This document shows, piece after piece, positions 17,707 to 64,000 of a stretch of 64,000 bases of DNA. The DNA lies in assembly GCA_023920165.1 (NCBI GenBank), contig CP089279.1, forward strand, positions 1,860,001 to 1,924,000, given 5' to 3'. The position numbers and the translations under genes are program-made. Under the pieces are notes generated by a model. It saw only the letters and a list, made by a program, of their open reading frames with translations. It searched no databases and had not been told where the DNA came from. Source of the stretch: Curvularia clavata. Taxonomy: Eukaryota. The stretch's first letter is position 1. Each line of letters begins with the position of its first letter.

Positions 17707-20700
17707 CGTCTCTTTGGTTTCTCATACACACTTCGTCCGCTCAGCCTTCACCCTTTGTGGCGCACTCTCCGTAACCTGAAATTCGATAAGATGGATCCGG
17801 TAAAACCAAAGCTGAGCAGACGCGCTGCTTGATACATATGCCCCATTTCTAGCATTCTGCCAACCTGTCGCGATAGGCCAAATTTCTTCGAAGTCGGCGA
17901 CCACATTGCGCCAAATGGGGATTGGACCGGGATGTGTATTGTCCGATTGTGAACTATTTCGCGGGGACAGGCTAGTCAAGCTCGGCAGGGGAGATGTACA
18001 CACCCAAAACCTGCTTAGCGAGGACCCTGAGAACTATCTGCCCATGATCTGGCGCATTGCAAGGGATATCGACGCGAGCGTGGACTGGTACTCCAAGGCT
18101 CTTCGACAATGGGTTGCGTCGCGCCGTGTCTGCGCTGTGGGTGCGAATAGGGAGTTCCCAAGTCGCCGACGTCTCCAAGACGCCGACCAACTGCGTCCTC
18201 GCAATTCCGCCCCAAAACTGCCGAAACCCGCCATCTGACGTACCTCAGTAAGACACCTCGCTGAGCCTCGCTATCGGCTTCTCGGCATATACTATAAAGA
18301 AGTGGCTGGCCGATAGTAAAGGAGTTCCCAACCGGCGAATACGTCGTATGTATCTACCATGCAGCAGTATCGGGGTACATATGTAACAGCATCAGCGCGC
18401 AACAGGGGCTCCGTGTTGCTGCCTCAACCAATTTCCACATGGACCCCACAGTGACATCAGGTTGATCATGGCAGAGGTGCCTGATATATGCAAACACTGG
18501 TTAGTCAGTACAACAACTTCTGATTAAAGTTCGGAGCCGTCATCATTTCCGTGATAGCTACCCCATGAGAGGCTTTGGCGTTTTTCGCTAGTCGGCGCCT
18601 TACTGAGACGTGTGTATAACACGACTGTTCCTCTGGTTTCTCTTGTTTACTTGCTCACCACCGAAGCGCGTAAACTGAGCGTCATGAGTCGACGTACAGT
18701 GGTGCGCGGAGAGGGTTCGTTGTATGGGAACGTTACCGAAGCTAAGCCGAGATCAAATATGAGTTATGAGTGTAGCCGGCGCAGATCCGAGCCTCGTACC
18801 ACCGCGGACTGCTTTTAACATTTACTCTGTCTCAGTGACTGTGTGGTTGCATCTTTATGTCCCGGTTCGTATTGCTATACCAAGGATACGTTTCTTGCCA
18901 GCTTATCCTGGTTCATTCTCCGATATACTATGATTGGCTTGCACAAACACTTATGCTACTGTGAGTGTTGTCTTCGCTACGTCCTATTTCTGATAGGATG
19001 AGCCAAAAATCCAGAATCGTGCGCGTACATATAGTCTGTCACATACAGTCAAGGACACATGGCTGCTTGTAAATAGCAGTCCCATTAAATCCAGTTCTTA
19101 GGTAAATGATCTGAGTGAAGTGCTGTGATTAGCAATGGCACTCCTTCATTAGCTATGGGCATTCTGCTGGGAAAAATAATACAAATTGCCTCGGATCTGC
19201 CTAATAACTTAGTCAAAAACTCTCTACTCTTGCCCGAGATGCGCATTGCTGCTCTCGGGCAACACTCCAACAAGGTCCATCTTATCTGTTTTGTCACCAA
19301 ACCCGTTGAAATATTAACTTTGTTTGTGAGGGTGATATATAAACCCATGTATTCAAGCTTATTAAAGCTCTACCTAATTGAGCGAACCCTCCACCTTAGC
19401 TATTTCAATAAGAGATTGCTATGTTGTCGTGGTGTTTGTGGCAACATGTATTATGGTCGCTAGTATGTCCTGAGATTCTGTGTGAAGCCTTATTCCAGAA
19501 CAAATCAAAATCAACGAACAGAGAGCGGCTCTCCACATTCATTTAGTGCGACAATGAGGACAAAAATGCGAATATAATACGGCCGTTGATATGTTTAGCC
19601 TCTGCAGGGGACCAATTCGTTAAATATCGAGATAAACAAACATTAAAGGCATCAAATACGATCGTGCAAGCCCCAGCCTTCATAATCAGGTATCAAAGCC
19701 GGAGCGAAGTTTACAGCCGAATATTTCCAGACCTACCCCAAGATTCGTCGCTTTCGGGCTGCCGCGGGTACCACATTCCTTCAACCCGAGGGTCTCTCTT
19801 ACATAGGCATCGTTCTTCTTCACTATATGCACGCATAACTATAACGGGAATAAAGCTGCAATGTAGAATCGAGTACCACGACAACGCTATTTACATTCAT
19901 ACACGTTTACTACAAAGCGCAGCATACTATTTCCATTCACCCAGTCCCTGATTGGCAGTGAAATGCATCAAAGAACGAGCGTCTACCGCCCTTAGAAAGG
20001 CGAGAGTAACTAGTCGTGTATAAGTATCGCCATGTTACAGGAGAGACGGCGTATGCATAATTCAACCGATTCTGCCCTTGAAGTACATGCATCTTTGATC
20101 GCGAAATCACGAGGTTTTTTTGACCAACCCAATGTTGTAAAGTACGCAAAGTCTAAAGAAAAACAAATGTGCCATTGTGGTCAGATGAGAACTATGGGCA
20201 ACTGCTATCTTGTTCAATGAGGTGCTTTATCCAGGGTTGCTATGGCGTCCCCCCGTTCTGCAAACTGCTATACATGCGTTGCTACTGCTGTGGGTCCAGC
20301 CATTGGCAATGGTAGCAAGTGTGTCGTGCAAACTTCCATTGAAAGCTACTGCTACCAATCTGGGCGTTGGCTGGGTAACTTAGTACTCTATCTGCGTATC
20401 TAAAATTATTGAAGACCTGGCTGCCTCCACAAGCAATACCCACTCACGGAAATTGATGATTTCTTTGTCTCTGCTTCGCTTCAAATTCGCCCAATCATTA
20501 GGCTACATAGCCAATGAAGACATCACAGGTTCTGGCTTTCAATAATTTATAAAGGTTCTTAGCTGATGGCCAAATTGAGTTCAGTGAGGCACTTGGGACT
20601 AGAGCTAAGATGATAGAGTTGTGCCACATTCCTCACGCAAAATGTAGCTCCAATTTTTTACATTCCATCAAATACCACGAATCTTGACTCTGAGATTATC

Positions 20701-22167
20701 AAATGATTGTACCAATGAATCACCTACCATTCTCGCTGGGTCGCCCATGAGGGTTTGCATAGTGGAACCTTTAGAGCCTGACACCCTGAACTCATTTCGA
20801 ATACAACACAGGTATCACATACTTTCTCTCAACATCCCCATAATCATTCTTGTCTTCGTCCACGAATCTCACTCGAACCAATTTTCGATTTCGCTCCTTG
20901 TCGCTCGAACTCCAGTCGGCCACAACCTCTGCTTTGTAAAACCTGTTACTATCAGGATACAAAGCAATGACGTCACTTCCCTTAGCAAGATCATAAAGCA
21001 TGCTATTCGAAGAGATGGCGAAGAGATTGTCGTCAGTTGTATCAAAAGGAAAAGAAGGCAGTGTATCCGGCTTCGCTTCAATGATTTCGTAGCGACGTTG
21101 TTTGCCCTCATCTATCACTGAAGTGATACGGCAGAGTACACCTTCGCCTTCTATACTTTGCATTTCGGGATCTGTGCTTCTATCGGGATAGCGGTAGAAG
21201 ACTTCGTCGTCACGGGCCAGGCCCGCAGTTGCCAGCTTTCGTACATCTGCCTCTTTTGTCGTTAGCTCCAAGCCTCGCTCAAGCGGGTTTGGAGGTGGAG
21301 AAGTGTGTTCAAGCGTCGGAGAGATGGGGCGGACTGATGCTTGTGCAAGCTCGTGTCGTCTCTTGGGTCCCGGAGTTGGCGTAGGCGGTGGCCCAAGATC
21401 TTCGCCTCGATTCCTTCGTGCGTCTGCCTCTTTTGCCATTTGCTCAAGGTCTAGCTTGCCGCCTTCAACAAGACGCACGTACTGATTCTTGACCATATTA
21501 TGGGTCTTTGTACCCATATGCTTTGCGATTGCCTTCCAGTCCGTGCCAAAGTATGCAATGTTCTTATCGAAATCTTGCAACTCTGAAATCGACCAATAAC
21601 TGGACTGGCCAGGTATCGCACCAGACCGGAATTTTGGAGGTTGACGACGTCCACGCTTCGCTAAGGCGTATGCGTCCCTGCACTCGTCACTACAAAACCA
21701 TTTCGTCCGGCCCGTCGGCACCTTCTCCAGGCCCGCGCATTTAAGATGGAACCACTCGCGCGAGCAGTCATCATTGTCGCAGGCAATCATGTTGCCATAC
21801 GAAACGTCGTTACAGTAGCAGTATCTGGTTTCGATGCCGTCTTCCTCGGACACCACCTCGTTTCCAATTTCAGGCTTGGCTTCTTGGTGGTCTTGTTCTT
21901 GGGTGACAGAGCTTGCTGTAGAGTTTGACTTCCCCAGAGATAGCTGGACCCCTGACTCAGCCTCTACGTCTCTGCCATTTCTTTCTAGCAAAAGCGACAA
22001 GTTGTTTCTGCTCGCCAGTGTCCTGGGATGATCAGGCCCTAGCACCTTCTCAAACTGCTCGAGCGTCTGCCGATTTATTTCTTCAGCCTCTTCGTACTGG
22101 CCCTGCGCGCTCAGTGCTGCTGCTAGGTTACTCATGCATCCTAGCGTTGTAGGATGATCAGGCCCTA

Positions 22168-22220
22168 GCGGGCATGGTCAGTGCGTGAGCATGGTCAGAC
22201 AATGAGCCACCCCACCAAAA
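22168..22220. repeat. Left TIR of transposon
   Basis: gcgggcatggtcagtgcgtgagcatggtcagacaatgagccaccccaccaaaa is the reverse complement of 24255-24307; it contains the direct repeat gcatggtcag twice. Confidence 0.95.
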
Positions 22221-22321
22221 TGCACGCCCACCAAAAAACGAAGCTTTTAAGCCCCATACAAAAGCTAATATCGTGAGATTTCTTGGCGGAGTAGTAAGAT
22301 TATAATATATTTGATGGCTGT

Positions 22322-24208
22322 CTACTTATATTTACTCGGAAGATTGATTTTGCGGCCGCGCGTAGTGGTTTTGGTGGAGGGCTCGGGTGGCTGCGGTGCA
22401 GACGCACCACCACTCTGATCATCCGCAACACCACGACGCTTAGCTGTTTTTGATATTTGACTTGATGAAGCTTTTCTTTTACCTTTATTCCCTCTATCTT
22501 GAAGTTTTTTTGGTGTTGCAGCAACGCGTTCTTGTTGTTTTTGAGCCCGGGCAGCCGCAAGTTGCGCAGCCTTCGCCTCCCGCTCCTTTGCTCGTGCCTC
22601 CCGTGCCAACTGTCGGGCTTCTTTTGCTTCTGCTGCAATATTTTTCTTATAGGCAGTAGCAGCAGCTTTAATCTCTTTTTACTCTTGTTTTCGGAGTTTT
22701 TCTACCTTAGCTTCTTATTGTTTTGCGTATTCACGAGCCCGAGCTTCTTGTACTGAATGAGGACTCCACACCACCGCCAAACTTTAATACTCTTAGTGCT
22801 GCTGAAGATCTAGAACTGGATTATACTTTTTCTTCTATTTTTTAGCGTTAATTTCACTGCGTAACTCTTCGTTTTCATAGTAGAGCAGCGCATTTCTAAC
22901 CTGAAGTAAATAGAGTGCCTGTTTTAGCTCTTTGGCTTCAACTTTTAACTTATCTGGGACAGCAGCGTCGTATAACTTAGACAGCTGTCTCCAAATATCC
23001 CCATCTCTATACTCTCTAACTCCTGTATCTATATCCTATTATAGTGTTGAGATTTTAAAGCGTTGGAGTACAACTTCTAGATCGAGTAGATGAACTCCAG
23101 TAGCCGCAAAGCTGCTTATAATATTCTCAAATATGAAAGTCAATATATATGCCGCCCAAAATAAGCTTATAAAGTCACTTTTTTGCACGCGCAGTAACCC
23201 CTAACAGCGGCGGAGAAAGTCGGATAGCTCATTCGAGTAAGCTGTCGACAGAGGAGAATACAACACCACGTCGAGTGGCTGAAGACTATAAGTCGCATAG
23301 GGGGGAAAGATCGCAATCAGGATTCGATAAGAGTCACAGTAATCGATAAGAGATAGAGTAACGTGACTTCCATAGCCGTCGAGCAGAAGAAGTCTATAGT
23401 CTCGTTTTGCTTTCCCCTTTATCTTCCAGTCAAACACCTATTCAACCCAAGCCTTTGCCAGCTCATTATTACTCCAGCCAGACTCAATTGTAGAGCAAAA
23501 AACCTTATATTTATCTACCTCCAAGTCCTATATCCATCGCTCGCGAAGACCAACATTTCCTTCAAAGATAATCGTAGGATCAATCCAGCTCCCATCAGTA
23601 CAAATACAAGCCAAAACTGTTATCCACTCTCTACTACCATCTTGCAAGGCTGCTATAACTTTCTTTTAGTCCCAAAATTATTTTAAAAACACTCTTTTAA
23701 ACCTTTCTACAACCCTAAGAAGGAACCCCTTCTCATCCATATTATAGATATTATATAGCTCTACGTTATACTAAGCGATCTTAGCACGAAGAAGTTCAAA
23801 ATACGATCAGTAACTATCAATATTATCAGCTTAGTAACGCTCCTAATCAATCCCAGTCACAAATTTAGTAATAAGATAATCGCGGTGTCAACAAAAAAAT
23901 CAGGAAATCCAGCTGTCCGAAGGCTCCCATTCTGCAATAACTAATACGTAGTTTTTAATTATAGATCTAGTAGATAGAAGAGCACGCTCAGTTAAGTCCT
24001 ATATATATTTTATAAGCTCGGATTCTTATAGTAGACTAAGAAGTTAGCGTTGGTGTATCGCGTCGTCACGCAACTAAGTTTTGTTTTAGTGTCTCCGCGC
24101 TAACGTATTGCGGTCAACACCAAAAATTTTTACAGCTTCACAGTACGAGATTTATCCTTCTGAGCCTTGCGAATCGATTGCTGCAATCGCTTTTGAAATC
24201 GGATCCAT
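22322..24208 (-). pseudogene. DDE transposase (HTH/CENP-B-like + DDE), many stop codons
   Basis: Start MDPISKAIAAI at 24208. Remnant motifs RLLLLDGYGSHVT and FPPYATYSLQPLDV (canonical DGHGSH / PPH.TH.LQPLD). C-terminus ...TTTRGRKINLPSKYK*. Stops are TAA/TAG, consistent with CAA/CAG origin. Confidence 0.88.
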
Positions 24209-24254
24209 GGTGGTGGAGTTATGTGGTGTTGAAGAGAATGGATTACTATGCTAC

Positions 24255-24307
24255 TTTTGGTGGGGTGGCTCATTGTCTGACCATGCTCACGCACTGACCA
24301 TGCCCGA
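24255..24307. repeat. Right TIR of transposon
   Basis: ttttggtggggtggctcattgtctgaccatgctcacgcactgaccatgcccga. Confidence 0.95.
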
Positions 24308-26609
24308 TAGCTCCTTCTTAGACCGCTCTAGTACCTGCCGATTTATTACTTCAGCCTCTTTGTACTGGCCCTGCGCGCTCAGTGCTGCTGCTAGGTTACT
24401 CATGCATCCTAGCGTTGTAGGATGATTAGGCCCTAGCACCTTCTCATACCGCTCCAGTACCTGCCGATTCATTGCTTCAGCCTCTTCGTACTGGCCCTGC
24501 GCGCTCAGTGCTACTGCTAGGTTATGCATGCACTCTATCGTATAATAATAGTCAGGCCCCGTCTCTTTCTCTAATTGGGCCAACCTTGATCGGAGCTTCA
24601 CCACATGCAACTCTTGGGAATGATCTTCATATTCGCTAGAAGAGATCTCGCTTGTTGAATCTCCCACAGATTCTTCGTCAGATTCAACACCAGAAGGTAG
24701 CACCGCAAGAGCTACTTCTTCCATATGACGTGCGATATGGAGTGACAAGTCATTACGGTCCCCGGAAATGAACTCAACACAAAGTGGACATGTCACCTCC
24801 GAGACTCGAATGTCCATACCATGGTGATCTTGCAGATGGTTCATCAACGCCTCACTGTTCTCAAAAAACGCTTGAGTGTCGCGACATTCAGCGAAGAAAC
24901 AAGCATATGCCAGTATGTCATCAAAAACATGCTTCCTAAGACGGCGCAATCAGCGTTAATTTTGTCTGGGTAGTATGGGAATAAATCGACTCACTTCCAA
25001 GCTTTGGTTCGCCGAAAATCCACTTGCCTGTTGCAGATCTCACACGTAAATGGCTCACCGGACCGCGCTTGCGCTGGTAATGGTGGTACGCGTTTGTGGC
25101 TTGCTTCAGCCCTGCTAGACACCACTGAGGGTGCGTAGATAGATTCAGGGCGAGAAGGATTGGCAATAATCTTGAACCCAACTTCCGATTGTGTCGGCAA
25201 AGAGACGCCGAGTCCGGAGTCATGGAATATTGTTTTCGCCTTCTCCAAAGCAGTTGTTTGAAGTTCTTGCTGTATCGTTTCCCGTTGCAAACGGAGCACA
25301 TGGTTGTATCGATCCCAGTTCAACTTTCCTAACCGGGCCACAATTGCTGATGCAGCTAGAGGGAACTTTTGGGAGATGCTGTTAGCGTAGGCTTGTTCCG
25401 GTAAATGCTCTTTGATGTCTTGGATAGCCCGAGGTTCCTCATCGTCGAAGCTTTCCTCCGCTGGTGATGCTAGGCTGGGCGCCAACATGATAAGAGTATC
25501 AATCTTCGTGCGGAGAGTCTGGCATAATGCTTCTGGGTCTTGCTCGGGTCGATAAGTAGAATGATGCTGTTCTTCAATCATGTTCATGGCCTGTTCTAGG
25601 CAAGTCGAGATTGCCGTTGACTGTAAAACCTTCTTCTGACGAGGCTCGCTGCTGATCATTTGAATTAATGCTGTTCCATGTCAGTGACTGCGCAATATAG
25701 TGGATGGGATAGCTACGTACATGTGCTGACGAATTGGCAGATAGATACGAGAACGGTCAGACAGATATCGCGCAGTTGGCGAGAGTCTTGAAGCATATCA
25801 TCGAGCTCGCCTCGCCATAATCCAAGGTCAATACCCCAGAAAAATAAAGCTGCGCAACTTTTCTCCAGGGAGCCATGGTGTTGGGTCATATTGGAATGCA
25901 TCCTGACCTCAATGAGTATGAGTCCTAGCGTCTCTATGAGAGACTTATAAAGCGATCCGATGGGTCCTTGTTCGTGGAGTTCATAGTTTCGAAAATCCTC
26001 TAATGGGAACCTCCGTAAACTCTCATCGCTATTTTCCAGTGCATGGGTGCTAGGAGGCACTGCCGGAGTCGGGTTGATCGCGGACGATGATGCTGGTTCT
26101 TGGAAGCGTCCCGATTCAGCCTTCCAACGCTCCATGACCAAGTCGGCCTCACGGGAAACCTCTGATGGAAACATGACCAACAGCTATTTGGAGCACCTCA
26201 TCTGTCGCATGCGACTTCCTCAGTCTTGAGGTTTCTTCCTATAGCGATGTGCCTTCGCTTTTACAATGTCAATTCTGTGTCGAACCGTTGTCACGTCCTT
26301 GATCGGCCGACCTTCGCTGCTTAGGCTGAACCTGCTAGGTCTTTTTTGAACAATAGCGTCGAAGTTAATGTCTCGGGACTTATGAGTAGATACTTCAAGG
26401 TCGCGAGACGTTACAGAAAGGGGGAAGGGTCTTAATTGATAGATTCTCCTTGCTGGCATGAAGATGCAGCTGAACAGCCATCAGGCTGCACCTGGGAGGG
26501 GCATGTGCGCCTATCAAATTGGGGGCCAAACTGCGCCTCCCTCTGCCAACAACGCGATTGTTCCTAGCTTAGACAACTGTCATGTCTCCCGAGATTGCTC
26601 ATCCTCATC

Positions 26610-28526
26610 ATGTCGGGCATCGAAATCGCAGGCCTAGTCTTTGGCGTCGTGCCCGTTGTTGTGGAGATTCTAAAGTCCTACAGCACAGCGAAACGTAAAT
26701 TGGCGACTTTCTCACGACATGTCGAAGTTGCATGCGACATCCAGCTGAGGTTTCAGGTAGCGGCAGCGAATTTCAACAATGATTGCCGCCTATTGCTGCA
26801 GGCGACTATCGCCCACCCAAGCGATGTCTCTGAGATGATGGAGGATCCAACGCATAAGAGCTGGCAGGAGCAAGGGAAGGACATTGAACAGCGACTGCGA
26901 GGCTTGATGCAACAAGACCACGAATTATGCCAGAACATCGTAACGCGGCTACGCGATATCCTCCGTGAAACACGAGACAGCCTGACCAAGCTCGAGGACA
27001 CACTGGGCAACGCAAAACAACCAAAACACGAGTTCGTGCGGAAAATCTGGCATGCTTTCAATACATCTCGCAAGGAGAACGAGTACATTCGACAGCTTGA
27101 TTCTTTGGACAAATGGAACAAGGCGCTGAGCAAGTTGCGAAAACAGAGGTGCAAGATTCAAAAGCGTCGCAATGTGCCTTCGGCTTGTATCATTCGCAAA
27201 GCTGTGCCGAGAAGCTATCAACAAATCCGCATCGCCTCGCAACAACTAGGAGAGTCGATCCACGACTCATGGTCTTGCACAAACACCTCTCATATTGGAC
27301 ACCAAGCCAGGCTATCGCTTGATGCCAAGAGCGGGTATGATAGTGTACAGCTTGATGTTGTTGTCGCATGTCAGCCGAAATCGGATTCAGCGCTTCGAAA
27401 GTAAGTCAGTGCGGATTTGCTTCACGGACCGAAGCGGTACATGAGAACTTCCCAGCTAACGAAGATGTACAGGCCATCCGCTGACGTGCCAATATGGCTG
27501 CAAATTCGGTCTATCACCTCACTCACAACATGCAGAGCACCATCATCGCCCCCGCCGGCCTTGGCGCTTGCATTATCTCGTGGAATAGAAGAAACATCGC
27601 AAATTGTAACCCAGAACTCGAAGAGCAGAGCCAAACCCAAGAAAAGAGTCCGAATCGATGACCCCAAGGACAACGTCAAATGTGTTCGAACGTCCGCAAC
27701 AAGCAATATAGAGACGACAGAGACTCAATCTTTTGTGATGTTGGACCTAAAGACAACAAAAAGCGTATGCTGCCATGTAACGAGAGTGCGCTCATCTACG
27801 TCGGCATGTCAAGATGGTTGCGTGGGGTTCCTCGAGGCTGCGAAGAGTCAACCAGCAGTGCGATTTATGTTCTACGATGCCAGCAAACTCGCCACCAACG
27901 ACAATTCTTCTTCCACCAGGCGACAAGGGGCGATGCCCATCAAGAGCCTTGTCCAACGCTTTCGAATACTGCAACAGATCACACTTGCACACAAGTTAGC
28001 TGAAGCTGTTCTCCAATACCACTCAACCTCCTGGCTGCCACAAGCATGGACTCTCCAAGACGTAGCATATTTTACAGATACATCTCAAGCAGATGTATGC
28101 GACATATCTGATGCACTGAACAGCTTACATCTGAGCAACCAGTTTCCAGACCGCGAATCATCCATTGTACAGTCAAAGCAAGAATCGCTGGATCTGAAGC
28201 ATACTTTTGGTATTCGTAACCTTATCCTGGCTAAGCTCGGCGTAGCACTATTGGAGATTTGTGCGCAAAAGGACATCACAGGGCCACGACTGGATGGTAC
28301 ACCATGTGAGATTATCGAGGCGAGAAAGCTACTTGATGAACAACATCATTCCATCATGACTCTGGGTAACCGTTATCTCAAGGTTGTGCGCAAATGTTTA
28401 CATTGCGACTTCTCTTGCGATGATGACGACCTTCACAGCGAGGCACTTCAAAGTGCGGTTTATACTGAGGTTGTGTGTGTTTTACAGGACATAAAAACCC
28501 AGTGGGAAAAATTTTTCAGCATATGA
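26610..28526 (+). CDS. Protein with HeLo-like/fungal STAND-type N-terminal helical domain and C-terminal kinase-C-lobe-like domain
   Basis: Start MSGIEIAGLVFGVVPVVVEILKSY. Intron 27401-27472 joins the exons in frame. C-terminal LAHKLAEAVLQYHSTSWL..W...DVAYF, LAKLGVALLEI, YLKVVRKCLHCDF. Frame is intact, ~614 aa. Confidence 0.8.
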
Positions 28527-47578: not shown

Positions 47579-50302
47579 ATGGCAGTAATGACCTCACCTG
47601 CTGTCGACAAAACTTCCTTGGACCTGAAGGTGAGCGCTTTTGCGCCGGCAGACGCCATGGCAGTCGACACCGAGACAAATGGGTAAGTCGCCCGCTGCAC
47701 CCCGCCGCGCCTGCTTCCCCGCCATGCGCAACACCTGCTAATACCTTGCAGCGTCCACGACGTCCTCTTTGACGATTCCGAAACCAATGCAAAGGTCGCC
47801 GAGGATCCCGCGCCACCCAAGCCAACAGTCAACGGAAACCACACGGAAATGGACACGTCAGAACCTGCTGTCGAGCCCACGACCAATGTCTCATCGGGAA
47901 TCGAAGGCGTCGCGCAGTACGTGCCAGACAATCAGCAAGACATCAACTCATTGTTTGGTGACTCGGATGTCGGCACGAGCGTCACAAACGCTGTCGAAGC
48001 ACCTACCTCTGATGTACGCGACGAGCCAGCACCGGCCCCACAGCCGTCCGCAGCCACCCAAGAGACGAGCACCAGCACACAGGAAGTGCCCGAGACTCAG
48101 ATTCCACCCAAACAAGAAGAGGAGCCAGCTGCAGAGAGCATGGACACGTCTGCCGATGCACCCGAATCCAATTCTGCAGAGGCTTCTGGCGCGCCCACAA
48201 AACCCATGGACGAATTGACAATCAAGACTAGTGCGGATGAAGCTACTGCGCCTGCCGCATCTACCCAATCACCGGCAATCATGGACCGTGAGATGGAAGA
48301 TGCGCCCTCGTCCGGCAAAGTGCGCCCGCGCGAAGATGACGACGATGATGTCCCCGACGCAAAGCGCACAAAGACTGAGGATGAGCCGGGTACCCAGGCT
48401 GACACCAAGCCACCCGTCGTGCCGAACCAGACCGAGCAGACCAATGGCAACAGTGTTACACCAGGCCCAGCATCTGAATCTGCGCAAGAAGCATCTGGCG
48501 TCCACAAGGCAGTCGACTGGGAGGAATGGCCAACAACACCCATGACGGAGGTTCAAAACAAATTTTTGCTGGAACGGATACGGAATACAAAGAAGATCAA
48601 AGTGTCACTAGCGTTCAAGGATCCTGTTGACCCCGTAGCGCTCAACATCCCAACTTACTATGACGTTGTCAAGCACCCCATGGATCTGACCACCATGGAG
48701 GCCAAGTTGAAGGAGAAAAAGTACACATATGTGAGGGATTTCATGGCAGATCTTGATCAGATGATTACCAACAGCGAGCTGTTCAACAACAAACAGCACC
48801 CTGTCACACAAGCAGGATACAATCTACGAGCTTACTTCTTGAAGGGCATGGGTAAGATGCCCCGGGGCGCTGCGGCTGAAGAGCCTCCCAAGCCGGCAAA
48901 GGCCAAGAAGCCAACAGTGAATACCGCGCAAAAGGCTAGGCGCGAATCACGCGTCGCACCGCCCAATGTCAAGTCTCCAGCCGCTCCCACACCAGCGGCG
49001 ACATCGCCACAGGCTGCTTGGCCGCTGCAGCAGGATGGCACTCCGCTCATTCGCCGCGATTCATCTACTACTGACGGTCGGCCAAAGCGAGAAATCCACA
49101 GGCCGTCCAAGGACTTGCCCTATGCGAATGCTAAGCCTAGAAGGAAGAAGTTCCAACAAGAGCTCAAATTCTGCGAGTCTGTAATCACGGAGCTCATGAA
49201 GCCAAAGTACAGCACTCTTACTTACCCCTTTGTGACTCCAGTCGACCCTGTGGCTCTCAACATTCCTTCTTACCTCAAGATCATCAAGAAGCCCATGGAC
49301 TTTGGCACCATTGAGAAGAATCTCAAGAACGGAGTCTACCAGAGTGCAAAGGACTTTTATGCCGATTGCCAGCTCGTGTTCCAAAACTGCTACAAGTTCA
49401 ATCCCGAGGGTGACGCCGTCAATCAAATGGGTCACAAACTCGAGGAGCTCTTTGACAATCTCTGGAAAGAAAAGGCTGACTGGCTCGCCCAGCATGCACC
49501 TCCCCCTGAGCATTCTCCTAGTGACCTCTACTCTGACGAGGAAGAGGAAGAGGACGAAGACGAGGAGGAGATGGACCCTGCCCATGCCCAGTTCCTTGCT
49601 ATTCAGCAGCAGATTGCACAACTGAACGCGACTGCGCAGCAACTGTTGCAACAGCAGACAAATGCCAAGCGTGCCTCGCCCAAGCTGCCCGGCAAGAAGA
49701 AGAAGAGTGGGCAACCCACAAAGAGGAAGAGCCTGCCTCTGGCTGTGCCACCTCCAGCCAAGCCCATGAAGAGCGCGGCGACCAAGAAGGCAAAGGCGCC
49801 TGCACCTCTGACTTTTGCCCAAAAGCAGGAGATTTCAGAAGGCATCAGCACTCTTGGAGACGCTGAGATGCGCCGTGCGGTTCAGATCATCCGCAACGGA
49901 TGCCCACACCTGGCTAATGTCAATGACGACGAGATGGAGCTGGACATGGACGAGATCAATGACGACACGCTCCGAGAGCTGTTGAGGTTCATCAAGTCTC
50001 TGCGCGGTCCCAAGGGAGGTGCGGTAGCCGATGACGATTTCGAGCCACCAAGACCCGTGTCCAAGCAGACGACGAATCGGCCCAAGAAGAACAAGCCCAT
50101 GGGCAAGTCGGAGCAGGAAGACAACATGCGCAAGATCCAAGAGAAGCTGCAGTCGTTCCAGGGCGGTGCATCGGGATCCAGCCAGTCTCCACCTGGTGAG
50201 TTGTCAGTGCTTGCTCGACGTGATGATGTACTAACCTCTGTAGTGCACGATGCATCCAGCGACGACGACGAGTCGAGCGGCTCTGAAAGCGAGGAAGAGT
50301 AA
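47579..50302 (+). CDS. BDF1: BET-family double bromodomain + ET protein
   Basis: Two bromodomains (FKDPVDPVALNIPTYY..PMDL; PFVTPVDPVALNIPSYL..PMDF..NCYKFN) and an ET domain (LTFAQKQEISEGI...EMELDMD). Introns 47683-47751 and 50196-50243. Confidence 0.95.
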
Positions 50303-51764: not shown

Positions 51765-53251
<1,487 letters not shown>

Positions 53252-60518: not shown

Positions 60519-63500
60519 CTACGCGCTCGGCTTCTCCCATGCTTCGGCTTCCTCGTCTGGAACCTGCCAGTCGGGACTGCTCATGTGCAAAAGTACTTCG
60601 CTGCGGTGTTGGCGACATGCTTGGGTGGTGGGGTGATGCTCTCCAAGAACAACGTTGTACCCATCACACGCCCTAGTGTACAGATTAAGAGATTCCTTGT
60701 AGTCACCGAGCATCGCAAGCAGATCAGCAAGGTAGTACACGCTAGTAAACGTGTCGGGGTGCTCGGGCCCAAGCACCTTCTCAGATGCTTCTAGATCTCG
60801 TCGATGCATCAATTCTGCCTCCTTATACTTGCCCTGCCTTGACAGTACAATACCAAGGTTATTAACGCTAATAAGCGTGTCAGGGTGCTCGCACCCAAGT
60901 AATCTTTCTCTCACTTCTAGTACTCGTCGATGCATTACTTCTACTTCCTCGTACTTACCCTGTCTTAATAGCACTGACCCAAGATTGTTAACGCTGATAA
61001 GTGTGTCGGGGTGCTCGCGCCCAAGTAACTTCTCTCTTGCTTCTAGCGTTCGTCGATGTATCACTTCTGCTTCCTCGTACTTGCCCTGGCTCTCTAGCAC
61101 TGACCCAAGATCGCTGGCGCTGATGAGCGTGTCGGGGTGCTCGCGCCCAAACAACTTCTCTCTTGCTTCTAGCGCTCGCCGCTCCATCTCTTCTGCCTCC
61201 TCGTACCTGCCCTGGCTCAATAGCACCGGCCCAAGGTTGCTAACGCTTATAAGCGTACGAGGGTCCTCGCGCCCAAGTAACTTCTCTCTTACTTCTAGCA
61301 CTTGTCGAAGCATCACTTCTGCCTCCTCATATTTGCCCTGGCTCAGTAGCACTGAACCAAGATTGTTGACGCTGGAGAGCGTGTCGGGGTGTTCGCGCCC
61401 AATTAACTTCTCTCTTGCTTCTAGCGCTCGTCGATTTATCACTTCTGCTTCGTCGTACTTGCCCTGGCTCAGTAGCACTAACCCAAGATTGTTGATGCTG
61501 GCGAGCGTGTCGGGGTGGTGGTTGCCCAGTACTCTCCTCCTCGACTCCATCACTTGTATATAGAGCTCTTCAGCTCTCTTATATTGGCCATCGCTCCTCA
61601 GAGCCCCAGCGCAATCTTCTGCAAGATTTGTTCTCTCCTCATCATCGTTCTTCTCGCTATGCGACAGTACATATTGAGCGTGCGGTAGCAATCGCCTCCA
61701 TTTGCTTCTATTACTATAGTCGATGTTTGGAAATACTCAGATCAGCTACGTGACTATGCGTTGATTATATTCGTGAAGCCGTCCCTGTATCTGCAGCTGC
61801 TCTCGTAAGACTTAGTGTACCAATTGATAGACGTCAAATGCTGACTCAGCAGGTCGCCTTGTGACAAGCACATACCTATCAAGTGTCATGATCGCATCTA
61901 CACGGGCCTGCGGCGAAGCTGCCTCAAGCAGATCGAGTGGAATATCCTTTCGGTCTACACACGCGGCAAAGTAAAGCTGCTCTACAGCAATGGCGTTGCT
62001 CTGCCGGACTTGACCTATAGAAAGAGATAGTGTAGCAGCTACAGCCTTTCTTAGACCAGACTCTCCATGCTCGCCTTCACGCAAGTCGTCGCTATGCTTA
62101 AGAGCTGCTTGGTTGTATTCGTGTAGTCGTGCTTGGTACTGCTGCACTGTCATATTGCTCGCGTTTATGCACGCTGCCGCTTGCGACACTGCTAGAGGTA
62201 GGTGCGATAGTTCTCTTAGCAGTCGTATAGCTCCCGGCTGCTCAGCATTAGAGAGCGGTGTTGATAGACGGGATTGCAACATCCTCAACGCCGTGTCTGG
62301 CGTCAGCTCACGCAGCGCTACCACATCTTGTGGAGCAAGGGTCCTAGCCGTGTCGCTTTCTGTTGTTGTGAAAATGACAGAACACAGCTTGGATTGTGGC
62401 AGGAAGTTGGCCAAGTCTGTAGTTTCTGCTGCTAACGAGCCGCCATGCTGGACAGTTGTGCCCTCAACATTGTCGAAGATTAGTAAACACTGTCGCGTAT
62501 TCAGCTCTGCTATGCAACGTTTTACAATCTGCTCTATATCTACCTGGTCGTTATTATAACCAGGAATGCCGAGCTTCTGTGCAATACTAGTATAGGACTG
62601 GTTGAGACTGTCTTTATCGCTCGCATCAATCCAGAAGACTGAGCAATGCTTCTGTTTCTTTAGTGTTCTGTGTGCGACTTCGAGCGCGAGCTGCGATTTC
62701 CCTGTTCCGCTAGGCCCAACTATTGCAAGCATCGAGGTACTGTTCTGTGTGTTGCTGAAGAGCTTTGCCTCTAGTTCAGCCAGCTGTAGTTCGCGACCCA
62801 CAAAAGACTTGTTACGCGAGAATGGAATAATTGACGGTGCGCAGTCGGCTCCCTCTACTTCAGCTTGTAGTCTTTCTAACGCACTCTCTCTTCTTTCGCC
62901 ATAGGTTATAGGCATAGAGACGCCAAGAAGTCCAAGCAGGCAGTATACCATGTCTTCTGTCTCGGTCGTTTCGCGACCGCTAACCCATCGCATGCGCTCA
63001 GATATACTAAACTGGTCGAGAGGACAGTTACGTAGCGCTGCGAGTGGAATGCCGGTAATGCTGTGTAGTAGTTGGCCGAGAGAGGTTTTGTCGCCTATAC
63101 GCTGCCCTTCGCACGAGAAGAACTCCACAGATGCTGGCGCTATTAGCTCCTGTAGCGTCCATCCGCGAGTGAACCATTTGCTTCGCCGAAGCGGTACATC
63201 CCAGTCCCTGCATAAGACAGATTCTGTCGCGGTCGAGGTCAAAGTCGAAGTTGAGGTCGATGCTGACACATCTGACAAGAAAACGTAGCATCGTGCCGCA
63301 TTCTTGTACCACTGGAACATGGAGTTGATCGCCTTGGAACGCTCGTTGTTATTCCATCTGTCGATGCAGCATGTGTCGATCCAAAAGTACTGCAGCTCAT
63401 CTCGCGCCACCTGCTCAGCGCAAAAGATAAGTTTCTTATAGCCTTCCTCTCTCTCCCTGTACATTTCGTTCGCTATATCTTCCATAAGGATTTCTGAGTC

Positions 63501-63599
63501 GCTCCATCTGTGCGACAGGACGGCGTAAGGTGGGATCGGCTTGCCGCGAAAGTCTGTCAGGACAAGCCTGCCGAGCGTATCAAAGTGGAGAAGCCGCAT
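60519..63599 (-). pseudogene. Fungal NLR, HET - NB-ARC - TPR architecture, with three in-frame nonsense codons
   Basis: HET motifs PYAVLSHRW, FWIDTCCID, INSMFQWY, WFTRGWTLQELIAP. P-loop GPSGTGKS, VFWIDAS, LLIFDNVE, LPLAVSQAAA. ORFs 61812-63599 and 60519-61691 are in the same frame, with stops at 61812, 61746 and 61737. Confidence 0.9.
60648..61529 (-). repeat. Tandem array of ~7 x 126-bp (42-aa) TPR repeats
   Basis: Consensus LGREHPDTLISVNNLGSVLLSQGKYEEAEVMHRRALEAREKL; high nucleotide similarity between units. Confidence 0.93.
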
Positions 63600-64000
63600 G
63601 ACATGTAGAATTCAGCTTGATTTTACCATGGAGAGAGATGAGTGAATGACTTTATCGTGTTCGGTGTAGTACAACAAGGTCGTGTTGGCGCAGAGGAGGC
63701 GTAAGCTGGACTGCTGAGAAGGCAACCTGGCGAGGCAGTGCCTGCGACTAGGCTGAATGGGCTGGCTACATAACGTGCCCAGCGATAGACGCTGCTAAGC
63801 CTCACGATCTGCAATTTAGGCAGTTCTTGCCTTGCAAATCCATTCCTTGATGAAGGGTACGCATAAGCAGAGTAACTTAGCATTGAACAAAGCAGATCTA
63901 TCGTTGCAGCGCTGTCGCGGTACCAGGGTCGAAGAGGGAGCTTTCAAAAAGGCGTGAATTGTGCGAACGCAAAATCAGTACTGTGCTGCATATGTGAAAT

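Follow-up and report, generated by a model that had tools for sequence, protein, structure and literature searches.

The window analysed here is a 64,000-nt stretch of the Curvularia clavata contig CP089279.1 (GCA_023920165.1, positions 1,860,001-1,924,000), and all positions below are counted within it. Its minus strand carries a chimeric gene whose 3' part is an open frame of 461 codons without a stop (22177..20792). In this frame, TPR units are followed by an ING-type PHD finger, a SANT module and an SGF29-type tandem Tudor, as a first-pass annotation of the stretch had reported. A degenerate DNA transposon separates the frame from the 5' part of the gene, which encodes further TPR units and an AcuF-like C2H2 zinc-finger region. 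By sequence comparison, the three tracts were copied from unlinked conserved genes and joined in frame to the C-terminus of an AcuF-like carrier, and the distribution of the chimeric gene shows that it is restricted to a lineage of Pleosporales fungi.

Architecture and transcription of the chimeric gene

Before the transposon insertion, the gene comprised 1043 codons in three exons. From the N- to the C-terminus, it encodes a region without Pfam matches, the AcuF-like zinc-finger region, an acidic linker, 3.5 TPR units, and the PHD, SANT and Tudor modules (Table 1). The NCBI protein P0261 (1047 aa) is an identical public model named 'ankyrin repeat domain-containing protein [Curvularia clavata]', and despite this database name no ankyrin repeat was found in it by domain search. 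The N-terminal 340 residues gave no Pfam match and no usable Atlas match outside the PF26082 clusters. The zinc-finger region is assigned by PF26082 (zf-C2H2_AcuF), a precomputed annotation on P0261. Atlas clusters labelled zf-C2H2_AcuF score 0.96-0.99, and 64-79% of their members carry PF26082, while the local Pfam copy returned only a weak zf-Di19 match in this region and no PF26082 model. The TPR units are of the fungal-NLR type with 42 residues each, and TPR_10 and TPR_12 were matched on residues 11-75 of the open frame (Pfam, E 1.5e-15 and 1.1e-14). At the DNA level, the units are 79-83% alike (repeat family D1), and their copy number differs from that in a close relative. Since neither NACHT, NB-ARC, HET nor HeLo was matched by Pfam on the open reading frames (ORFs) of the gene or on P0261, the carrier is best classified, from its domains, as a member of the AcuF-like C2H2 zinc-finger family and not as an NLR. 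The first-pass annotation had overlooked that the protein is without a NOD or HeLo domain and that the TPR array belongs to an AcuF-like gene and not to an NLR.

The PHD finger is, by its sequence, unmistakably of the ING type. Generic PHD models stayed below threshold on the open frame (PF00628, 16 bits against a cut-off of 24), but residues 110-170 match the PHD fingers of ING3, Yng1, ING1, ING4, ING5, Pho23 and Yng2 in the Protein Data Bank (PDB) with E values of 1e-17 to 1e-12. All zinc ligands (C4HC3) and the Y/S/M/W columns are identical to those of ING1, and the printed alignments to ING3, Yng1, ING1 and ING4 are likewise identical at these columns. The Y/S/M/W residues, which had been reported as retained, presumably line the H3K4me3 pocket (trimethylated Lys4 of histone H3) as in ING2. 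The ING N-terminal domain (PF12998) was not matched on the 1047-aa protein, which is thus not an ING protein as a whole. In the SANT module, Myb_DNA-binding was matched on residues 194-235 with 30.9 bits (cut-off 24.4), and the tract weakly matches the NCoR2 SANT2 structure (2LTP, E 1.2e-3) and another SANT in the PDB.

SGF29_Tudor was matched on residues 336-456 with 60.8 bits (cut-off 23.8, E 1.9e-16), and the tract matches the structure of yeast Sgf29 (3MP1) and, when used as a profile, also that of human SGF29. An AlphaFold model of the Tudor, built from a 16-sequence alignment, has a mean pLDDT of 83.6. Its top Foldseek matches are yeast and human SGF29 in complex with H3K4me2/3 peptides (TM 0.61-0.68). 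According to PMC4589357, the cage of human SGF29 consists of Y238, Y245, F264 and D266. Both cage Tyr and the cage Phe are invariant in all 16 aligned sequences, and in the window Tudor an Asp stands at position +2 from the Phe, the spacing of human F264/D266. The columns of the two Tyr map onto human SGF29, and the Phe and the Asp were placed via the yeast alignment, so that the retention of all four cage residues claimed earlier agrees with the present alignment. The N-terminal part of SGF29 is absent; the Tudor tract begins ~15 residues before the first Tudor strand, after SANT-derived sequence. The expectation that each segment would hit its own hidden Markov model thus held for Myb_DNA-binding and SGF29_Tudor; the PHD finger fell below the Pfam cut-off, and its ING type is given by the PDB matches (E ~1e-17). 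The positions originally proposed for the modules (21826-21674, 21604-21470 and ~21212-20810) agree with ours within a few bases.

Transcript-like contigs of a close relative span the whole gene. Logan contigs of the runs X1 and X5 come from the same organism in two studies and differ from the window in ~5% of letters. Record 1 of X1 (3464 letters, depth 36) extends from 20625 to beyond 26300 and aligns in blocks of 20625-21918, then 431 letters of TPR sequence, 24618-24934, 24994-25670 and 25721-26300. It skips exactly introns 1 and 2 of the gene, where CT..AC on the plus strand corresponds to GT..AG on the gene strand. Since the two introns are precisely missing, we infer that the contig is a spliced mRNA, and the X5 contigs of the second study give the same picture. 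In the close relative, these contigs thus show a single spliced mRNA that runs from the TPR part through the three modules, which answers the call of the first-pass annotation for evidence of contiguous transcription. They also rule out an assembly chimera, which that annotation had named as a refuting outcome. The relative's contig is without the transposon, and its TPR part is ~125 nt shorter than that of the window, equal to one unit fewer. The sole indel in the coding part is 6 nt long and in frame. Contigs of two further runs, X9 and X11, cover only short pieces (21743-21918 at ~90%, with loose ends on both sides), and our guess is that they could derive from transcripts of canonical ING genes in the samples concerned.

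Donor genes and recurrence of the tracts

The ING-derived tract aligns without gaps over its 97 residues (78-174 of the open frame) to residues 587-683 of a 694-aa ING protein of Bipolaris maydis, with 71% identity overall and 84% in the PHD core. The best full-length PDB relative of this Bipolaris protein is S. pombe Png2. The SANT-derived tract (residues 181-299) shares 78% identity with a 120-residue stretch (1357-1476) of a 2285-aa 'Myb-like domain-containing' protein of Decorospora. The donor SANT protein P0263 matched no solved structure in the PDB, and its size and SANT type suggest that the donor is the Snt1 orthologue. Nearest to the Tudor tract are P0043 (Aaosphaeria) and P0027, at 55-56% identity; with Macrophomina SGF29, the identity is 48%. 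The tracts align to their donor families through non-domain linker as well as domain. The copied parts are the last ~97 residues of the ING protein, ~120 internal residues of the SANT protein and the last ~140 residues of SGF29.

In trees, the window SANT lies inside a clade of long SANT proteins of Pleosporineae with 99/98 support. The window PHD falls among Pleosporineae ING proteins with weak support, but not within the tight clade of Pleosporaceae to which Bipolaris belongs. The window Tudor is sister to the Tudor of another fungal protein, P0002, with 93/92 support and adjoins P0027/P0065 and Aaosphaeria. Three distinct donor genes, as had been predicted, are thus supported by the gap-free, linker-inclusive alignments for ING and SANT and by the tree for the Tudor. 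The argument that the captured domains were intronless is void: a metagenome scan with the PHD tract returned 33 loci, all of them ING genes, in which the homologous tract sits within one large exon, so that the tract breakpoints do not lie at introns.

P0002 is a 645-aa protein from a 2-kb contig in which PHD, SANT and Tudor follow one another as in the window's gene. Its AcuF region is 80% identical to that of the window, and it has the same junction motif on the TPR side (KSNST.SSVT). It is without a recognisable TPR. Over ~85 residues from its N-terminus, it matches exon 2 of the window's gene read out of frame, so that part of the P0002 gene model is mis-called or carries a frameshift. 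The SANT tract of P0002 covers donor residues 1327-1431 and is joined to the Tudor with nothing in between. In the window, a 42-nt direct repeat upstream of the Tudor (21238-21279, against 21415-21456) matches at 33 of 42 bases, whereas none of 200 codon shuffles reached 33 (maximum 28). The repeat encodes the motif at which the SANT tract of P0002 ends. These sequences are most simply read as a fusion that predates the separation of the window's species from that of P0002, followed in the window's lineage by replacement of the SANT tract from its donor, through a second capture or through conversion; the repeat would then be what remains of the original junction. The serial capture envisaged in the first-pass annotation stands to this extent, since the repeat and the shorter P0002 tract point to a SANT re-acquired or converted after the first fusion.

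When the window's protein is compared with P0002, the zinc-finger region is the most alike (80% identity), followed by the cores of the PHD (73%) and the SANT (71%); the Tudor reaches 52% and the linkers 36-55%. Canonical Tudors of different orders are 72% identical. The modules thus keep their folds and pockets and are better preserved than the linkers, yet they evolve much faster than their donors.

Among 1.84 billion representatives, 13 proteins reach E 1e-30. A word-based search with the Tudor alone gave seven proteins from 464 candidates and missed P0002, so we give it little weight. We fetched 295 proteins, all chosen for similarity to one module. The PHD tract alone is present in 153 of them, the SANT tract alone in 102 and the Tudor alone in 22; besides the window's own two entries, 16 carry more than one kind of segment. 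Only P0002 has all three modules besides the window's own protein, which agrees with the earlier proposal that the gene is not a conserved single-copy orthologue of Pezizomycotina. In 13 of the 16 multi-segment proteins, an AcuF region is combined with PHD, SANT and/or Tudor tracts in varied orders, such as AcuF-PHD-TPR in P0047, AcuF-Tudor in P0065 and AcuF-PHD-SANT in P0051 and P0098. P0047 (505 aa) consists of the end of an AcuF region, an ING-type PHD finger and six TPR_10/12 units, with the PHD before the TPR array. This order argues for an assembly independent of that of the window's gene. Two further proteins, P0006 (288 aa) and P0103 (588 aa), consist of four to five tandem ING-type PHD fingers.

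The SANT tract also occurs in NLRs. In Alternaria alternata, P0285, P0283 and P0282 carry DUF7708 and NPHP3_N/NACHT, then two C2H2 fingers and then, at their end, a Snt1-like SANT tract with its tail, and are without a repeat array. Other proteins have the SANT tract beside SH3, kinase-fragment and ULD domains. For the SANT tree, 49 rows were picked from 113 with SANT matches; 17 are composites, and 32 long proteins without other segments were labelled canonical. The composite/canonical label needs 13 changes on this tree, of which at least seven are forced by strongly supported branches, and a single origin was found in none of 200 bootstrap trees. The SANT tract thus moved into new architectures at least seven times. 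In the Tudor tree, the copy of P0003 nests elsewhere, with Polychaeton. The PHD tree is too short to resolve the question (the best tree has eight changes, and starred branches force one), and a single origin of all composite PHDs is possible on these sequences.

The transposon and the neighbourhood of the gene

The transposon is bounded by perfect terminal inverted repeats of 52 nt (22169-22220 and 24255-24306) and has a duplicated TA on either side (22166-22167 and 24308-24309). Pfam matched the remains of DDE_1 at 23201-23437 (E 1.2e-8). At least 26 stops occur in every frame of the element, its GC content is 0.42, and its TpA/ApT ratio of 1.11-1.16 resembles that left by repeat-induced point mutation. 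No second copy was found in a search within the 64 kb of the window. The element splits a TPR unit. When it is removed together with one TA copy, the frame reads ...KKE-L-GPDHP..., an ordinary boundary between 42-residue TPR units. The TPR array described earlier upstream of the modules is thus present, but the transposon that cuts it had been overlooked. Since the relative's transcript contig is without the element, the insertion is shown to have arisen in the window's lineage.

The public model treats 22165-24294 (2130 nt) as an 'intron' that covers the transposon. The donor site of this model, GTGCGT, lies 13 nt inside the left end of the element, and the acceptor is formed by CTGAC at the right end followed by the duplicated TA and then G. 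Splicing at these sites would keep the frame and lengthen the coding sequence by 12 nt (four residues). Because the ends are inverted repeats, the same splice signals would be present in either orientation of the element. The predicted splice could be an introner-like rescue or merely the choice of the gene predictor. A gene predictor will always find some GT...AG. Unless the element is removed by splicing as the annotation assumes, the allele in the window is cut short after TPR unit 2. In the public gene model, the locus is an example of a transposon concealed as an intron.

Table 1. Features of the chimeric gene and the inserted transposon (positions in the window)
Feature	Position	Strand	Details
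Whole gene	20792..26174	-	ATG 26174-26172, stop 20794-20792; based on ORFs, sequence reading, P0261 and the relative's spliced contig
Intron 1	25671..25720	-	50 nt, GTACGT...CAG; exactly skipped in X1 and X5 contigs
Intron 2	24936..24994	-	59 nt, GTGAGT...TAG; skipped in X1 contig ('cut +1')
AcuF-like C2H2 zinc-finger region	24626..25074	-	protein residues ~351-480; intron 2 inside; PF26082 on P0261
TPR units 1 and 2	24308..24559	-	42 residues each, TPR_10/TPR_12 type; unit 2 ends at transposon
Degenerate pogo/Fot1-like DNA transposon	22168..24307	-	2140 bp; inverted ends, DDE_1 remnant
TPR unit 3 and degenerate fourth unit	21950..22167	-	from Pfam and translation
ING-derived tract	21656..21946	-	open-frame residues 78-174; PHD core 21826-21674
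SANT-derived tract	21281..21637	-	open-frame residues 181-299; SANT core 21604-21458, then GPPPTPTP tail
Relic of an older SANT-to-Tudor junction	21238..21279	-	42-nt direct repeat of 21415-21456
SGF29-derived tandem Tudor	20795..21214	-	residues ~322-461, reaching the stop codon

The neighbourhood otherwise consists of core housekeeping genes, including those for Sec6, frataxin, diphthamide synthase, TIP49 and a BET bromodomain protein. The BET double-bromodomain gene (47687-50299, plus strand) and the TIP49/RuvB-like gene (52190-53248, plus strand) are ordinary chromatin genes without a sign of a link to the chimera. An NLR gene with HET, NB-ARC and seven TPR_10/12 units lies 38 kb from the chimeric gene (60522-63611, minus strand). 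Its TPR units are only ~50% identical to those of the chimeric gene at the protein level, and we rejected the possibility that the latter are a recent copy of them. The divergent neighbour at 26610-28526 (plus strand), whose start codon is ~430 bp away, encodes a DUF7580 domain (E 4e-15) and has a hydrophobic, helical N-terminus (MSGIEIAGLVFG...). A stop at 27402-27404 was considered as a pseudogene mark of this neighbour and rejected, since it lies within a typical 72-nt intron (GTAAGT...CTAAC...CAG), and the gene looks intact. Downstream of the chimeric gene, ~2.4 kb of sequence (18300-20700) contain no ORF of at least 140 codons and have a slightly low GC content of 0.47.

Possible functions and comparison with known systems

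The C-terminus would act as a multivalent reader of the H3 tail, with two H3K4me2/3 pockets in the PHD finger and the Tudor and the SANT as a tail-binding module. It would bring whatever the TPR/zinc-finger part binds to H3K4-methylated chromatin. Since both pockets are intact and zinc-finger proteins repeatedly gain readers, we rank first the reading in which such a multivalent H3-tail/H3K4me reader tethers the AcuF/TPR part to active chromatin, and we give it close to an even chance. Several observations weigh against it. The reader function is predicted solely from the retained pockets, and the modules evolve faster than their donors though their ligand, the H3 tail, is invariant; the end branch of the window Tudor amounts to 2.39 changes per column. 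Of 287 differences between the window and the relative, 40 are listed, and after five in the 3' untranslated region are set aside, the 35 coding ones comprise 12 synonymous and 23 non-synonymous changes (seven and 11 of the listed differences in the Tudor proper), which indicates weak constraint. The window's own gene copy is interrupted, and the splicing of the 2.1-kb element is an assumption of the public annotation. No run covering the stretch is recorded as RNA; the RNA nature of the X1 and X5 runs is a tool's guess, and we deduce it from the two precisely missing introns.

Alternatively, the reader fragments may be integrated baits, namely decoys of ING, the Snt1-like protein and SGF29 displayed on a variable repeat protein. 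The sensed factor would attack or mimic the H3K4me3-reading machinery (a mycovirus, a mycoparasite or a selfish element), or it would be a methylation signal as in het-v. We rank this second and consider it rather unlikely. The same SANT tract is present in the bona fide NACHT NLRs of A. alternata and in the SH3, kinase-fragment and ULD architectures, with the forced repeated moves described above, and here as well a receptor-like protein has received a duplicated piece of a conserved host gene. The fungal-NLR type of the TPR units, with one unit fewer in the relative, the fast evolution of the modules and the renewal of the SANT tract from its donor would also suit a bait. In the literature, zf-C2H2_AcuF is named among highly divergent families beside HET in a pangenome of N. 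crassa (PMC13412767), and there are precedents in the Tudor and HeLo of HET-Vb (PMC9262711) and in a CHK2-derived kinase proposed as a decoy (PMC12258605). On the other hand, the protein is without a NOD or a recognised death/signalling domain, no SET methyltransferase or HeLo partner was found among ORFs of at least 140 aa in the window, and the AcuF-like family is not known to act in immunity. The repeated gain of readers by zinc-finger proteins is equally expected if these act simply on chromatin.

The interruption of the frame by the transposon, the weakly constrained ratio of the listed changes, the very long Tudor branch and the very narrow distribution would all fit a young transcribed chimera without selected function, drifting to loss, in which the transposon is one step of decay. 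The absence of a recognisable TPR and the mis-called or frameshifted N-terminus of P0002 point in the same direction. We rank such an evolutionary by-product third and judge it improbable, because the 379-codon module region is still open in the window and the one coding indel of the relative, at ~5% divergence, is in frame, and because fold, zinc ligands and pocket residues are intact. The domain cores are better kept than the linkers (71-73% against 36-55% between the window and P0002), the relative expresses the gene at a contig depth of 36, and the same kinds of fusion recur independently. Two further readings are already refuted, namely that the locus is a chimera produced by assembly or annotation and that it encodes an ordinary chromatin protein conserved as an orthologue. 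The 2130-nt 'intron' of the public model does look like an artefact, and its ankyrin name fits no domain found, but the TPR and the three modules share one uninterrupted frame, and the relative's contigs from two independent studies span the gene from the N-terminus through the Tudor. The few strong matches and the single other protein with all three modules argue against an ordinary gene.

In its broadest form, the idea of baits would hold that Dothideomycete fungi use copies of their own H3K4me3 readers (ING PHD, Snt1-like SANT and SGF29 Tudor) on AcuF-like/TPR proteins and NACHT NLRs. These copies would be refreshed by conversion from the guarded genes and would report attack by a virus, an antagonist or a selfish element, or a foreign methyl mark. 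We regard this as unlikely. If it is true, the three-bait gene singles out chromatin readers as a major class of targets in conflicts of fungi, and AcuF-like proteins form a branch of fungal surveillance that has gone unrecognised.

Gene chimeras and integrated domains are already known, and it is the stacking of three histone-tail readers in one transcribed frame that stands out here. The same three donor tracts recur in other AcuF-like proteins, and the SANT tract recurs in NACHT NLRs too; moreover, the renewal of a tract from its donor left a molecular trace. Full-text searches yielded no paper that describes this architecture or places SANT, PHD or SGF29 tracts in NLRs of fungi, and no report of SGF29 with NACHT in fungi was found. 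On PF26082 or AcuF-like proteins, one passage only was found, in PMC13412767.

Among fungal and plant immune systems, plant NLRs with integrated decoys and the CHK2-derived kinase proposed for Sordariales NLRs (PMC12258605) are similar in that a host fragment was duplicated and fused, recurrently, to a fast-evolving protein bearing repeats. The chimeric protein, however, has no nucleotide-binding domain, and three different fragments are stacked in it. The main text of PMC12258605 contains no mention of SANT, Myb, PHD or Tudor, and its supplements may list such domains. In the het-v system of Podospora anserina, as described in PMC9262711, HET-Va is a SET methyltransferase and HET-Vb combines MLKL/HeLo with a TUDOR domain. 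The first-pass annotation had cited het-v as pairing a methyltransferase with a HeLo-type protein, which is right, and the TUDOR domain of HET-Vb makes the precedent stronger. The likeness to the chimeric gene lies in a domain of the methyl-mark-reader type inside a fungal non-self recognition protein. The TUDOR of HET-Vb is, according to that paper, only a remote HHpred match, and it is not an SGF29 copy; and the window's gene differs in having no HeLo of its own and no methyltransferase neighbour among ORFs of at least 140 aa. If the modules of the window's gene are baits, they provide a concrete and testable class of guarded targets for fungal immunity and tie in with the Tudor/methyltransferase logic of het-v. 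The transposon, in turn, resembles introners (PMC9860276 and PMC12130899) in that its ends offer splice sites that the public model uses in frame; it differs in its length of 2.1 kb and in being the sole copy found in the window.

Compared with Snt1/NCoR-type SANT proteins (1,600-2,300 aa in Pleosporales), the chimeric gene has a 120-residue tract of SANT and tail, 78% identical, as a fragment without the rest of the scaffold. The sequence, fold, zinc ligands and cage residues of the canonical H3K4me3 readers (Yng1, Pho23/Png2, ING1-5 and SGF29 of SAGA) are retained in the window's gene, but only the reader ends were copied, and the N-terminal parts of ING and SGF29 are absent. These N-terminal parts tie the proteins to their complexes, a histone acetyltransferase or a histone deacetylase in the case of ING. 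In the window's gene, unlike in the canonical proteins, two readers stand in one chain together with a SANT, and the Tudor evolves much faster. Multivalent readers with paired modules, such as Tudor-PHD or PHD-bromodomain proteins, are ancient and conserved architectures in which several histone-tail pockets provide avidity and combinatorial reading. The window's gene would share this working principle, whereas it is young, assembled from copies and attached to TPR/AcuF-like parts. If its modules are functional readers, the gene represents a natural experiment in the building of multivalent chromatin readers.

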